Below are positions 14,520 through 21,808 of a stretch of 39,549 bases of DNA, in pieces. Origin of the DNA: an uncultured Spirochaetota bacterium (GTDB lineage: Bacteria > Spirochaetota > Spirochaetia > SZUA-6 > Fen-1364); contig CAVUXE010000012.1 in NCBI GenBank assembly GCA_963745235.1, positions 1 through 39,549 on the forward strand. Reading direction: 5' to 3'. Below the pieces are notes generated by a model. That model was not told the DNA's origin. It did no database searches and worked only from the letters and a program-made list of their open reading frames with translations. A program made the translations under genes and the position numbers. Within the stretch, counting starts at the first letter, position 1. Every line of letters begins with the position of its first letter.

Positions 14520-14861
14520 ATGCGACGAAAGATCCGGGTAAGCTCGAACCACGACGAGCAAAAGGAAGAGCGGTTGCGGCCCAGCAGGTTTCTCGGCTAT
14601 GACAGGGACTCGCTTGGCATGTACGCCCTGCGCCGCGAGATGTTCGAGGTAGCGGAATCCCAGTTCCGGCGGGCCGCTTACCTCAATCCTTTTGAACCCA
14701 GATTCAAGCAGCATCTTGCGTGGGTTCTGTACAAGCAGGGCAAGCTTGTCGACGCAAAGCGATACATCGTGGAGGCGATCGGTCAGAATCCGCGGGACAA
14801 CGACAGCAGGCAGGTTCTCACGAAGATTGAAGAGAAAATGGGGGGCAGATCAATTCCATGA
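14520..14861 (+). CDS. Small tetratricopeptide-repeat protein
   Basis: LG...AESQFRRAAYLNP...LAWVLYKQGKLVDAKRYIVEAIGQNP; stop overlaps the next start (ATGA). Confidence 0.8.
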   Translation: MRRKIRVSSNHDEQKEERLRPSRFLGYDRDSLGMYALRREMFEVAESQFRRAAYLNPFEPRFKQHLAWVLYKQGKLVDAKRYIVEAIGQNPRDNDSRQVLTKIEEKMGGRSIP

Positions 14862-15481
14862 CCAGGCTCATTCTCGTGCGGCACGGGCAAACGGACTGGA
14901 ATGTGAACGAAAGGTTTCGTGGTCGGTTCGACGTGCCTCTGAACGCGACAGGATTGCACCAGGCGCAGTTGACAGCTCGATGGATCGCAGCTTCGTGGAA
15001 GCCGACGGTGGTCTATTCCAGCCCTCTTTCCAGGGCTCTCTCGACAGCGGAGGAGATCGCAGCCTCACTGTCCCTGAGCGTTGAAAGACTTCCCGAGCTG
15101 ATCGACGTGGACTTCGGCCAATGGGAAGGCCTGACCCCGGATGAGGTTCGCGCGAGATGGCCGCAGGAGATCCATGCCTGGTACTCAGCCCCGCACACCG
15201 TTCGCATTCCCGGGGGTGAGGGCCTAGACCATGTCCGCGAGCGCTGCATGGCGGCGCTTGCGCGTATCGGATCGAAACACGCGGGCCAGACCGTGGTCGC
15301 GGTTGCCCACACGGATCTCAATCGTACCCTGCTCCTTGTGGTGCTCGGACTGGGAAACGATCGGCTCTGGCATCTGAGACAGGACACCTGCGCCGTCAAC
15401 GAGATCGAGATCGAAAACGGCGATTTCACGCTTGTTTCCATGAACGAAACCGGCCACCTTCGCCGGCAACAACTGCCGTAG
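14858..15481 (+). CDS. Histidine phosphatase (GpmB/CobC-like phosphoglycerate mutase family)
   Basis: LVRHGQTDWN, SSPLSRA, DFGQWEG, GGE, VAH. Confidence 0.92.
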   Translation: MTRLILVRHGQTDWNVNERFRGRFDVPLNATGLHQAQLTARWIAASWKPTVVYSSPLSRALSTAEEIAASLSLSVERLPELIDVDFGQWEGLTPDEVRARWPQEIHAWYSAPHTVRIPGGEGLDHVRERCMAALARIGSKHAGQTVVAVAHTDLNRTLLLVVLGLGNDRLWHLRQDTCAVNEIEIENGDFTLVSMNETGHLRRQQLP

Positions 15482-15523
15482 ACCTGCATTGGCTTCGTCG
15501 TTGCCAGGCCGGCGTAGCCCGTC

Positions 15524-15552
15524 TTGCTCGTTCCTCCGATTGCCTGTAAATT
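15524..15552 (+). promoter_or_regulatory. Candidate promoter of riboswitch 1 transcript
   Basis: TTGCTC-17 bp-TAAATT, 6 nt before the aptamer. Confidence 0.5.
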
Positions 15553-15558
15553 GGGTCT

Positions 15559-15608
15559 GGAGATGGCATTCCTCCGTTGAACCGCCCTGCTGGCTGATGA
15601 TGCCTGAG
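15559..15608 (+). ncRNA. Fluoride riboswitch (crcB motif) #1
   Basis: GGAGATGGCATTCCTCC...AACCGCC...GGCTGATGATGCCTG: P1 GGAG/CTCC, pseudoknot GGCAT/ATGCC, conserved GATGG, AACCGC and GCTGATGA. Confidence 0.9.
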
Positions 15609-15676
15609 CATAAGCGAGCCTGCCGCGCGTTCTGCGCCGTCTTTTGCGGCCAGGTGGTGGGGAGGGCCGGAGAGCA

Positions 15677-16126
15677 ATGCCATTCAACGAAAATCACAGA
15701 CGCTACCTTCTCGCGACTTTTCAGCACATCGACAAGCTCATTGCGCGGGCTGTCGCCGCCATTGGACCGGCGAACGGTAGCCCGCTCTTTCCATCTTGCG
15801 CTCCAGACGTGACCCCTGCCCAACGGCAGATCATTGCTGACAGTCTGTCCAATTTCTGGAACGTCGCCCGCCGCTTCCTCGATGCCGTGCCCGTCCGCCC
15901 GGACGCGCCGTCGAAGGGGGCACTATGGTCGTTCCACGTGGCTCTCGACTTCGTCTGGGTCTCCCTTGCCGAACTGGAGCCGAAGCATCTCGCCAATTAC
16001 GGGCCCTTGGACGAAGATGCAGCCTCCGAGACAGAACGCGCACTGGCGGAGTTACAGGCGATTCTCCGTCAACTCACGGAATACCTGGACCGAGAAATGG
16101 GCGGCGGAGTCCAGTCCCATGCATGA
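15677..16126 (+). CDS. Hypothetical helical protein (149 aa), resembling the N-terminal module of some bacterial dynamin-like proteins
   Basis: GGAGAG RBS; MPFNENHRRYLLATFQHIDKL...SPLF...DVTPAQ...ELEPKHLANYGPL; the dynamin resemblance is from recall only. Confidence 0.7.
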   Translation: MPFNENHRRYLLATFQHIDKLIARAVAAIGPANGSPLFPSCAPDVTPAQRQIIADSLSNFWNVARRFLDAVPVRPDAPSKGALWSFHVALDFVWVSLAELEPKHLANYGPLDEDAASETERALAELQAILRQLTEYLDREMGGGVQSHA

Positions 16127-16356
16127 AAAGAGTGAGGCACAGATCCGGGAAGGCAGGCAGACGGCGCTCAGGTTCGTCGTCCTGATCGGCATCCTGAGCT
16201 TCTTCGCGGACTTCGTTCTGGTTCCTGGGCAGCGCAGCGCTTGGGTTTCTCTACGGGGTATCGTTGTTCTCACTGATTGCCGTGTCAGTCGCCTTGCAAC
16301 TTGGTGGGGTGCCCTGGTTCTGGCGTGTTGCGGTCTTGCGCGGTCGCGGCTCATGA
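16119..16356 (+). pseudogene. MFS transporter with most of the gene deleted
   Basis: First helix ALRFVVLIGILSFFADF joins out of frame at about 16215 to last helices FWFLGSAALGFLYGVSLFSLIAVSVALQLGGVPWFW...stop 16356. Confidence 0.75.
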
Positions 16357-20712: not shown

Positions 20713-20740
20713 GATAAGTCCTCCTACCGCGGGAAATAAG

Positions 20741-20798
20741 GCAGGAGTCATCAGCCTTCGGATGAAGGCAGTTTGATTTGGGGGGGACTCCATCCCCC
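20741..20798 (-). ncRNA. Fluoride riboswitch #2, upstream of eno
   Basis: Minus strand GGGGATGGAGTCCCCCCC-AAATCAAACTGCC-TTCATCCGAA-GGCTGATGACTCCTGC: pseudoknot GGAGTC/GACTCC. Confidence 0.92.
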
Positions 20799-20805
20799 GC
20801 TCTTT

Positions 20806-20835
20806 ACTTTAAAATGCGCCGACAATTCCCGTCAA
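20806..20835 (-). promoter_or_regulatory. Candidate promoter of riboswitch 2 / eno
   Basis: TTGACG-18 bp-TAAAGT just upstream of the aptamer. Confidence 0.55.
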
Positions 20836-20867
20836 GGGACCCGTGGCGGAGTGACGTCGCAGGCGCA

Positions 20868-21734
20868 TCATCCTATCCATTTTACCGCGGCCTCGCAGAG
20901 TGAGGGTACCATTGGGATCAGTATGCTGGTGCCTTTCGAGCAGACTTCGAGGCCGATGTCCCGGACATGCGCTCCCGTTATATTGCACCGTGGAATGATA
21001 AAGGAGTCCACACCGTAAGGCTCTGTGGATTCCGTGGGGTCGCAGAGGTACACAAGCTCGAAGGGATTCAAAGCGATCAGTTGCCTGTGATGAGCCTCCT
21101 TCCGAGACTTTCCCCGAACTGACGCGAGCGCAGAGATGACAGGAGAGTTCCGCGAGAGACGGACGAGTGGGTCTTCGAGAAGGACCTTCCACTTGAAAGG
21201 CAGCTCCTCACGGCCTGGATCAACGGCTGGCAGCGGTTGGGGGACTCCCGCCAGCCTCCTGCGCAGAGCCAGGAGCGCCGGCTCCATTTCCTGACGAGCC
21301 ACCGTGTTGTACCTGATCGTCAAACGATCTCCAAAGGGGACAAAGCTCAGGCGGCCATAGAGGAGAATAGCCACATCCTCTATCGCGGCCACCTTTTCCA
21401 GCGGGATCGTGATCTTTACACCCGGTTGGGGCTTCTCCGTCCAGAGTCCGACGGCCCTCTCTCCGAGGGCCAAGACACTGTTCGGCGATATCACCTTCTG
21501 GGCGAGCGAGCCGATGGAACGCACCGCCCATGGGATTATGAAAATCTGACCCAGCTCATGGATGCTACAGACTTCGTCGAGGGCTTTCCTTGCTCCAGCG
21601 GGGATGTCTTCCTCCCGGCGCGGAGTATAGGGGTGACTGGCTCGTTCAGCGCGAAAATAGGGGCCACCCTCCGCTTCGGTAAAACGGATTTCCCACTTCT
21701 CGGCTGGGTCTTGGGGGCGAACAGCAGCACGCAT
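20868..21734 (-). CDS. Hypothetical protein (288 aa) downstream of a fluoride riboswitch
   Basis: Long ORF with GGGAGG RBS and globular composition; no family recognised. Confidence 0.75.
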   Translation of the reverse strand: MRAAVRPQDPAEKWEIRFTEAEGGPYFRAERASHPYTPRREEDIPAGARKALDEVCSIHELGQIFIIPWAVRSIGSLAQKVISPNSVLALGERAVGLWTEKPQPGVKITIPLEKVAAIEDVAILLYGRLSFVPFGDRLTIRYNTVARQEMEPALLALRRRLAGVPQPLPAVDPGREELPFKWKVLLEDPLVRLSRNSPVISALASVRGKSRKEAHHRQLIALNPFELVYLCDPTESTEPYGVDSFIIPRCNITGAHVRDIGLEVCSKGTSILIPMVPSLCEAAVKWIG

Positions 21735-21761
21735 AGGCGAGGGCCTCCCTTTGCAACACTG

Positions 21762-21808
21762 TCAGGAGTTATCAGCCTTTACAGCGGTTAGGGTGAACTC
21801 CATCGCCC
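21762..21808 (-). ncRNA. Fluoride riboswitch #3
   Basis: Minus strand GGGCGATGGAGTTCACCC-TAACCGC-TGTAAAG-GCTGATAACTCCTG: pseudoknot GGAGTT/AACTCC; one C-A mismatch in P1. Confidence 0.85.

Follow-up and report, generated by a model that had tools for sequence, protein, structure and literature searches.

We describe here an island of fluoride riboswitches and associated genes in an uncultured Spirochaetota bacterium. The DNA analysed is a single stretch of 39,549 nucleotides (nt), contig CAVUXE010000012.1 of assembly GCA_963745235.1, which we call the window. The genome to which it belongs (G000 below) is a metagenome-assembled genome (MAG) whose 104 contigs add up to 5.85 Mb, with a completeness of 85.7% and a contamination of 5.9%, and its genus consists of uncultured Spirochaetota of peat and soil. 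For comparison we used 40 relatives, namely 24 of the same family (20 of them of the same genus) and 16 from other families of the order, which makes 41 genomes with the window's own. The riboswitches and open reading frames (ORFs) of the island are listed below, with protein lengths in amino acids (aa); R1 is a second aptamer model, explained further on.

15550-15613, plus strand: riboswitch 1 (RF01734 at 49.0 bits, E 9.4e-11; model R1 at 44.5 bits)
15677-16126, plus strand: 149-aa protein (P0002), a standalone copy of a helical-bundle domain, with no Pfam or NCBIfam match
~16116-16324, plus strand: MFS transporter remnant with a broken frame, identified by tblastn and blastn against the MFS gene of the related locus L013
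16375-17910, plus strand: MutS-like ATPase A, 511 aa (PF00488 MutS_V at 61.5 bits, residues 333-495 only)
17907-19403, plus strand: MutS-like ATPase B, 498 aa (PF00488 at 74.7 bits), overlapping A by 4 nt
20712-19423, minus strand: enolase, 429 aa (TIGR01060 eno at 660.1 bits against a cut-off of 300)
20806-20735, minus strand: riboswitch 2 (RF01734 at 54.2 bits, E 1.9e-12)
21734-20868, minus strand: 288-aa protein (P0001), a lineage-specific family with a predicted tandem PH-like fold
21816-21756, minus strand: riboswitch 3 (RF01734 at 42.2 bits, E 1.6e-08; model R1 at 55.3 bits)

The riboswitches were found with cmscan, by which the whole window was compared to Rfam at the gathering threshold. 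In total this returned the three fluoride riboswitches and one tRNA (39130-39202), and no riboswitch of another class. All three matches cover model positions 1-64 of 64, at a cut-off of 34 bits, and model R1 with its filters off recovers the identical three aptamers, the next best match in the window reaching 11 bits. The strands of the pseudoknot (GGCAU/AUGCC, GGAGUC/GACUCC and GGAGUU/AACUCC) are complementary in each copy and vary between the copies; the RF01734 model itself does not score the pseudoknot, and the strands were read from the alignments. The original prediction, which had been made from the letters of the DNA without database searches, had proposed three crcB-type aptamers with covarying pseudoknot pairs and had suggested an Rfam search as a check. 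Both points hold, with RF01734 scores of 42.2-54.2 bits against 34. The gene order is also as it was then described, with two convergent arms headed by riboswitches. The plus-strand arm consists of riboswitch 1, the 149-aa ORF, the MFS remnant, MutS-like A and MutS-like B, and the minus-strand arm consists of riboswitch 3, the 288-aa ORF (21 nt 3' of this riboswitch), riboswitch 2 and enolase. A gap of 20 nt separates the ends of the arms.

Riboswitch 2 gives the clearest idea of how such control might operate. A promoter-like site (TTGACG-18-TAAAGT) is found at 20835-20806, and the fold predicted without ligand places the AGGAGG Shine-Dalgarno sequence in a helix with the 3' pseudoknot strand (z = -2.73, with 0 of 200 shuffles as good). 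The start codon of the enolase is the ATG at 20712, which follows this AGGAGG, and not one at 20793; the gene that the original prediction had recognised is thus confirmed, but not the longer ORF given there, which overlaps the aptamer. Judging from the sequence and from the known behaviour of this riboswitch class, the three riboswitches would act as independent ON switches: fluoride binding would let the pseudoknot form, and the ribosome-binding region would be released. Riboswitch 1 may additionally use a terminator, and a weak terminator-like hairpin with a U-run indeed follows it at 15625-15637.

The enolase of the island matches both Pfam domains, Enolase_N and Enolase_C, and it is a true extra copy. 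A housekeeping enolase, 60-62% identical to it, is present in 18 of the 20 other genomes of the genus and is fragmentary in G000. A second enolase, 88-100% identical to the island copy, is confined to the three genomes where a riboswitch heads an enolase gene (G000, G006 and G007). In a maximum-likelihood tree of 21 sequences, midpoint-rooted and with an arbitrary root, the island enolase clade is split off (99/98) from the group that holds the housekeeping clade of the genus (100/100), and the enolases of the window and of L013 cluster with those of the metagenome islands L096 and L106, on contigs without an assigned taxonomy; the row L110 of this tree, with a branch length of 10, is a wrong ORF and is to be ignored. 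This grouping apart from the housekeeping clade favours acquisition of the enolase together with the island over a recent duplication. An induced xenologous second enolase would add capacity of a classic fluoride-inhibited enzyme, and passages of PMC11139923 and PMC5533749 give the offsetting of fluoride inhibition as the rationale for an extra enolase. The housekeeping enolase of G000 (contig C90, 7238-8519) lies in three frame-shifted pieces, and the same is seen in two other genomes of the genus. Single-frame breaks in G000 need caution in general, and those in this enolase and in the CLC gene of contig C59, described below, are probably assembly indels and not pseudogenes.

How far is this arrangement conserved? 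Relatives of the 288-aa protein are encoded at 32 genome loci, L013-L044. The order 288-aa protein, enolase, MutS-like B, MutS-like A, MFS (where it is kept), 149-aa protein, histidine phosphatase and TPR protein is conserved together with riboswitches in L013, L014 and L015, and partly in L028, that is, the full island is found at three of the 32 loci and a partial one at one more. A synteny survey, as the original prediction had proposed, thus finds the cluster elsewhere. The last two genes of this series are also present in the window:

14520-14861, plus strand: TPR protein (Pfam TPR_2)
14858-15481, plus strand: histidine phosphatase (Pfam His_Phos_1, 207 bits)

The original prediction gave the island a span of 14520-21808, and both genes are indeed inside these coordinates, but they precede riboswitch 1. 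Neither Rfam nor model R1 with filters off places an aptamer ahead of them here, and a decayed fourth aptamer 5' of the TPR gene was considered and ruled out, as nothing else in the window scores above 11 bits. In G007, G010 and G013 the TPR and histidine phosphatase genes are under riboswitch control. As for L014 (contig CAWKEZ010000110.1), its island is complete and nearly collinear with that of L015, and the MAG is labelled as an uncultured Thermoleophilia; this label reflects either a binning error or a transfer.

The island was originally predicted to be a mobile module. We agree with a patchy distribution and a foreign origin. Given that the island is patchy, that the 149-aa domain has no match in any of 400 other Spirochaetota genomes taken from across the phylum, and that the enolase stands apart from the housekeeping clade, the sequences argue that a chromosomal island was probably acquired horizontally. 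Mobility is another matter, since the 20 ORFs that were scanned, which lie between 9017 and 28749, include neither an integrase nor a transposase, and there are no repeats beside riboswitch 3 in 21800-22800. The sole tRNA of the window is 17 kb from the island. The GC content is slightly lower in the island (0.55-0.58 vs ~0.60-0.62), and the flanks of the island differ between L013 and L014; in the window they are ordinary sugar-transport genes. From riboswitch 3 to the MOSC gene there are ~960 nt (21817-22777) that contain only short ORFs without family matches (22030-22458 scanned).

The MFS remnant noted in the original prediction is real, as both of its ends align to the MFS gene of L013. 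It keeps the first ~40 aa (73% identical) and the last ~40 aa (85%) of the L013 protein, with nucleotide identities of 84.8% over 99 nt and 81.7% over 109 nt. The internal deletion amounts to ~960 nt and the remaining two ends are in different frames; an intact MFS ORF of ~400 aa with 12 transmembrane segments is not present in the island. In L013 the MFS has the same position, between the 149-aa gene and MutS-like A, and consists of two overlapping ORFs that match PF07690 (MFS_1). In L014 and L015 it is gone completely. Parts of the island are decaying, then, with the MFS deleted here, split in L013 and lost in the two others. It could be argued that the entire island is a decaying relic, in which riboswitches persist while the cargo no longer matters; besides the MFS deletion, riboswitch 3 is lost or decayed in relatives, and the TPR and histidine phosphatase genes lack a riboswitch here, unlike in relatives. 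However, the other ORFs of the island are intact and 70-88% identical to their orthologues in three other species, and the three aptamers are full-length matches of 42-54 bits. In our opinion it is therefore very improbable that the island is a mere relic.

The MutS-like ATPases of the plus-strand arm resemble the MutS family in domain V, their closest solved relative being the MutS2 core (PDB 7vuf), and the A/B pairing suggests a dimer as in MutS proteins. In other respects they are unlike MutS and MutS2. Each is ~500 aa long and has domain V alone: Pfam matches no MutS domain beyond V in A or B, the mismatch-binding domain included, and there is no Smr domain, both proteins finishing directly after domain V. 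Their scores with TIGR01070 (MutS1; 62.9 and 56.1 bits against a cut-off of 641.7) and with TIGR01069 (MutS2; 44.7 and 67.2 bits against 400) are far below the cut-offs, and so are the NCBIfam KamC and MutS2 matches of B, which cover the ATPase part only. Walker A of the pair reads GPNQGGKT / GANQGGKS. Walker B has N-E where MutS and MutS2 have D-E; these residues are N416-E417 of A, invariant across five orthologues of A, and lie in the LLFNES stretch of B. Two other kinds of function were considered for these proteins and rejected. A membrane-bound ABC-like exporter is not plausible, as neither A nor B has a hydrophobic 19-residue window (such a window is absent from the 149-aa and 288-aa proteins too). 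As for anti-phage defence, PADLOC gives no match for the 149-aa protein, the 288-aa protein and MutS-like A, and only weak P-loop matches for B (E >= 7e-05).

The location of mutS 3' of the crcB motif was published in 2010 (PMC2864571, as far as its relevant passages go), and the view of the original prediction that enolase and MutS-like genes are recognised neighbours of these riboswitches agrees with that source and with parts of PMC11139923. In the literature searched, which published gene lists may exceed, we found no account of the function of riboswitch-linked MutS-like proteins. We would imagine a soluble MutS2-like ATPase heterodimer that works with the small helical-bundle protein as its accessory or N-terminal module, and for the two together we infer a repair or rescue function that is driven by NTP and guided by the helical domain.

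The helical domain itself leads well beyond this locus. A word-based search with the 149-aa protein finds merely three other clusters. A profile search among 1.84 billion representatives reaches 818 proteins at E<=0.001, of which 354 have E<=1e-10. Among the best 150 of the 818, 65 are of 100-210 aa and 70 are at least 600 aa long with the domain at the N-terminus; 68 of these 70 long relatives have a P-loop at residues 150-260, and none of the best 150 is MutS-like. Ten relatives (8 long, 2 shorter) were scanned for domains, and Dynamin_N was found in nine, all eight long ones among them; one relative is labelled "dynamin family protein [Propionivibrio sp.]" by its source. The common long form is thus of ~650-720 aa, with the 149-aa domain followed by Dynamin_N. 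The AlphaFold2 model of the 149-aa protein is a five-helix bundle (pLDDT 90), which has no fold match in the PDB below E = 1, and the protein atlas gives nothing above 0.89. The domain therefore is shared with dynamin-like GTPases (Dynamin_N; LeoA-like, with a weak LeoA match), but the window has no dynamin gene, and the domain stands alone before the MutS-like ATPases. In L015 the 149-aa ORF is fused in frame to MutS-like A, with no stop codon, and in L014 it is apparently fused. A complex prediction for the 149-aa protein and MutS-like A scored 0.00, which speaks neither for nor against binding. We infer that the domain would direct an NTPase to a fluoride-related task. No publication linking dynamin-like proteins to fluoride riboswitches was found in the literature searched, although published gene lists may cover such a link.

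Such a link is suggested by metagenome loci L070-L149, which are the best 80 of 529 confirmed matches to the fused form, with 461,049 nt in total; they include near-duplicates and are not a random sample. Model R1 was built from 34 aptamers, 11 of the genus and 23 from 13 loci picked by a regular expression, which match the model by construction. This expression found 21 of 21 controls and is less sensitive than Rfam on foreign sequences; in the 13 loci picked, Rfam finds 24 fluoride riboswitches. With model R1 and E<=0.01 the 80 loci yield 81 matches, 76 of them at 34 bits or more, in 56 loci. An aptamer on the same strand and no more than 300 nt 5' of the gene is found by this model at 30 of the 80 loci, and at 19 further loci it lies 750-1750 nt 5' of it, beyond one intervening gene. 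Of the 80 loci, 53 were also scanned with Rfam at its gathering threshold, by which 24 of the 30 direct and 18 of the 19 farther cases (L141 was not examined) are confirmed, and L096, L114, L142, L145, L146 and L148 are not. Genes for the 149-aa domain thus stand behind fluoride riboswitches in 42-49 of the 80 metagenome loci. If the loci are clustered at 70% identity, which does not make the sample random, 36 clusters remain, in 17 of which the riboswitch is direct and in 9 farther off. The aptamer density is ~165 per Mb in the 80 loci vs 4 aptamers in the 5.85-Mb genome of the window; the 29 loci L016-L044, ~377 kb, contain two.

The neighbours at these 80 loci are AAA_16-type NTPases (30 loci), homologues of the exchanger described below (22, at 44-62% identity), DUF190-CBS proteins (22), enolase (20), CrcB (18), Usp (15), island-type MFS (9) and, at two loci only (L073 and L099), MutS-like genes. 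The shared gene pool would then comprise enolase, a CPA exchanger, MFS, Usp, CrcB and NTPases with the 149-aa domain. On sequence grounds, the island of the window is therefore one variant of a widespread family of multi-riboswitch islands of soil and peat metagenomes. The traits of this variant are that the 149-aa domain is standalone before MutS-like ATPases and that CrcB is missing.

Certain features of these loci deserve mention in their own right. The NTPase seen in 30 of the 80 is a protein of ~250-350 aa with weak AAA_16/STAND-type P-loop matches, encoded just 3' of the dynamin-fusion gene (e.g. L105, 4363-5427), and 18 of the 80 loci have an additional protein of ~200 aa without a Pfam match. 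Around the dynamin-fusion gene, some contigs hold three or four fluoride riboswitches in 5-6 kb, which is denser than in the window; L131 has four RF01734 matches in 5.5 kb and L135 has three. In L137, an nhaA-I (Na+-type) riboswitch (RF03057, 46.4 bits) is found at 784-837 on the minus strand, ~100 nt from a fluoride riboswitch, so that two RNAs that sense ions are neighbours there.

The 288-aa protein is the second of the two uncharacterised proteins that the original prediction had counted, and it was counted correctly: like the 149-aa protein, it has no sequence-family membership in Pfam or NCBIfam. It has homologues in 105 clusters, in none of which a Pfam domain covers it. The 32 genome loci with its relatives all come from MAGs, 31 of which are labelled Spirochaetota, and several genomes have two or three copies. 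AlphaFold2, with an alignment of 28 sequences, predicts two beta-sandwiches, each closed by a C-terminal helix (pLDDT 87.8, pTM 0.86). Foldseek against the PDB finds nothing at E<=0.001 for this model; its top ranks mix PCNA chains with the double-PH protein Spt16M and the bacterial PH protein 3b77. The protein atlas has weak leads to bPH_3 and DUF4429 (0.81). The two predicted PH-like beta-sandwiches with C-terminal helices are a likeness to bacterial PH-like (bPH) and double-PH proteins, whereas the confinement of the family, among genomes, to one spirochaete lineage and the lack of a significant fold match set it apart from them. This is probably a binding or adaptor protein. One relative, P0058 (435 aa), has a dCache_1 sensor domain in the precomputed Pfam column, which hints at a PH-like module that may be attached to signalling proteins. 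The conserved neighbourhood of the family was considered as a guide to function and proved uninformative, as the 32 loci offer only generic sugar ABC-transport and histidine-kinase neighbours. In L023 a riboswitch is found 5 kb from the 288-aa relative, heading an exchanger. As to its place in the regulon, the 288-aa protein is a recruit that is both recent and unstable.

We now come to the question of export. Fluoride tolerance of bacteria is usually explained by export through Fluc or CLC-F. The original prediction found no gene for Fluc/CrcB or CLC-F in the window, and this is upheld by genome-wide searches. CrcB (PF02537) has no match in the window or in G000, while the same search is positive in 11 of 14 control genomes. 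CrcB is present in 1 of 20 genomes of the same genus (G004), 1 of 24 of the same family, 6 of 16 from other families of the order, and hence in 7 of 41 overall, with the window's own counted; it was not found in G002, G006, G011, G015, G016 and G019, each 95-97% complete. No CLC gene was found in the window. The only CLC of G000 is on contig C59 (31312-32350), in two frame-shifted pieces, with CBS domains and without a riboswitch. CLC-F proteins are CLC proteins without CBS domains, with a fluoride-type selectivity filter, and are often riboswitch-linked. The motifs of the C59 protein are GSGVP, GREGP and GIFSP, which we take to be chloride-type motifs that CLC-F proteins lack, and by its sequence it looks like a chloride-type CLC and not a CLC-F.

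A fourth fluoride riboswitch of G000 lies outside the window:

contig C40, 7319-7383, plus strand: fluoride riboswitch (RF01734 at 52.7 bits)

It directly heads a 403-aa Na_H_Exchanger protein (L010, 4320-5614 downstream region). Just 5' of these are genes for an ArsB/CitMHS transporter and Usp, and an ankyrin-repeat protein is encoded downstream. RF01734 matches are found in 12 of the 20 other genomes of the genus. When the 22 riboswitches above the cut-off in the 21 genomes are assigned to the genes they head, the Na/H exchanger is a target in 9 genomes, the MutS-like arm in 5 (the 149-aa gene included or not), enolase in 3, the TPR protein and histidine phosphatase in 3 and the 288-aa gene in 2. 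The exchanger is thus the commonest riboswitch target of the genus, and in L013 the exchanger and its riboswitch directly adjoin the island. It would counter acidification from HF entry. According to passages of PMC11139923, enolase and Na+/H+ antiporters are common classes linked to fluoride riboswitches, and the exchanger class is read there as pH homeostasis against weak-acid accumulation.

We disagree with the original prediction where it states that fluoride is handled by target replacement or protection rather than export. Target replacement is in line with the true extra enolase and with the lack of a canonical exporter, but not as the sole mode, because the riboswitch-driven exchanger and the former MFS of the island make ion transport part of the response. 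Protection by the two unknown proteins is pure conjecture. Taken strictly, the idea would be that a mobile module gives tolerance only by replacing or protecting the targets of fluoride, and that transport plays no part. In its favour are the extra enolase under its own riboswitch, the lack of CrcB in the genome and in 19 of 20 genomes of the genus, and the patchy distribution, differing flanks and slightly lower GC of the island. Still, we consider it unlikely, as a riboswitch-driven Na_H_Exchanger is the commonest target of the genus and stands beside the island in L013, an MFS gene was formerly in the island, the 20 scanned ORFs hold no integrase or transposase, there are no repeats in 21800-22800, and the flanks are ordinary sugar-transport genes.

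Alternatively, a canonical exporter may exist in sequence that is unassembled or unbinned, and the island would then be an ordinary accessory to a response based on Fluc or CLC-F. The completeness of the genome is 85.7%, CrcB does occur in G004 and in six genomes of other families, and related islands of other phyla hold CrcB in 18 of the 80 loci. Against this, 19 of 20 genomes of the genus are without CrcB, six of them at 95-97% completeness, and all four riboswitches of the genome head other genes, so that we give this explanation only a small probability. The third possibility is that the CPA-family exchanger, and formerly also the MFS protein, is itself a fluoride- or HF-coupled exporter, which would make it a third kind of bacterial fluoride exporter. 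Its being the top riboswitch target (9 of 21 genomes) in a genus without CrcB, and the occurrence of its homologues in 22 of 80 unrelated fluoride islands, can be cited for this. However, we know of no anion transport by CPA proteins. The exchanger also co-occurs with CrcB in the same island family in other phyla, and the published reading, in the parts of PMC11139923 that deal with it, is pH homeostasis; a direct role in fluoride export seems to us improbable.

Weighing this evidence, we are fairly confident that the locus is a chromosomal fluoride-stress island with three ON switches and a cargo of enolase, MutS-like and PH-like proteins, in a regulon without a detected exporter. Our confidence in a specific biochemical role for the unknown proteins is much lower. 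Together with the exchanger of C40, the island would form the fluoride regulon of a lineage without detected Fluc/CrcB or CLC-F. Tolerance therefore probably rests on pH and ion homeostasis and on target supplementation, and not on a dedicated fluoride channel.

Several points weigh against this reading. That riboswitches 1-3 respond to fluoride and induce their genes is deduced from sequence and from analogy with the class. The predicted ligand-free fold of riboswitch 1, in which the start-codon region is paired with the 5' pseudoknot strand, is not significant (z = -0.56), the fold of riboswitch 3 is no better than shuffles (z = -1.65), and terminator-like sites are not enriched in the region (7 vs a shuffle mean of 8.8). 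An exporter could lie in the unassembled part of the MAG, and CLC-F was ruled out for G000 only, by way of sequence motifs. The arbitrary root and unassigned contigs of the enolase tree, the non-random choice of the 80 loci and the decay of the MFS have been mentioned above. The 288-aa family is for the most part not linked to riboswitches. Aptamers are found at 4 of its 32 loci (L013, L014, L015 and L028), 28 being without. Among the closest orthologues, those of the window and of L013 (36.8 bits) have the aptamer directly 5' of the gene and those of L014 and L015 lack it, and in L016 only its 5' half remains upstream of the orthologue; another match 5' of an orthologue has 29.2 bits, below the cut-off. 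Because so many loci are without an aptamer and the riboswitch is lost or decayed in orthologues, the role of this family in fluoride stress may be marginal.

It is useful to compare the island with systems already known. Regulons of the fluoride riboswitch (crcB motif) were reportedly described by Weinberg in 2010 and Baker in 2012. The island has the same aptamer class and, judging by passages of PMC2864571 and PMC11139923, the same gene classes, namely enolase, Na+/H+ antiporter and mutS-like. It differs in its three aptamers within 6.3 kb, with a fourth elsewhere, in two unnamed cargo families, and in that no Fluc or CLC-F was found in G000 and no CrcB in 19 of 20 genomes of the genus. The nearest parallel is the operon ppaC-uspA-eno-gpmA-crcB-orf5249 of Enterobacter cloacae FRM (GI3), which is riboswitch-controlled and confers resistance, according to excerpts of PMC5533749. 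Both have a riboswitch-induced extra enolase beside an enzyme of the His_Phos_1 family (gpmA there, the histidine phosphatase here) and a Usp (there in the operon, here by the fourth riboswitch), and in FRM the extra copies aid resistance, as the same excerpts state. In contrast, GI3 is described there as having one riboswitch, CrcB and a pyrophosphatase, and as flanked by transposases; the island of the window has three riboswitches and no CrcB, ppa or transposase, and adds the MutS-like, 149-aa and 288-aa proteins.

A further idea we offer tentatively, and with doubts about it as a whole. The 149-aa domain might mark an undescribed class of fluoride-stress NTPases, dynamin-like in many soil bacteria and MutS2-like pairs here, that would be induced by the riboswitch to repair or rescue damage done by fluoride or by metal-fluoride complexes, which are abundant in acid soils. 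The dynamin form might act on the membrane, and the MutS2-like form on stalled complexes, either nucleoprotein or ribosomal. With the CPA exchanger and the spare enolase, this would amount to export-independent tolerance in a Fluc-less genus.

The riboswitch class and its associations with enolase, antiporter and mutS genes were known before. What is new, relative to the literature searched (published gene lists may hold some of it), is a Fluc-less genus with a four-riboswitch regulon, the 149-aa family with its strong link to the riboswitch, and the tandem PH-like protein. Non-export responses to fluoride are listed as an open research area in the relevant part of PMC11139923, and a genus that keeps fluoride riboswitches without a detected Fluc makes the non-export arm directly testable. 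There is relevance also for the engineering of fluoride-tolerant strains for organofluorine degradation. In the end, the result on the 149-aa domain may outweigh the locus itself, given its 818 relatives and the riboswitch link in half or more of the sampled loci. If true, a large gene class would join the fluoride regulon, and the long-unexplained "mutS" association would gain a shared partner domain.

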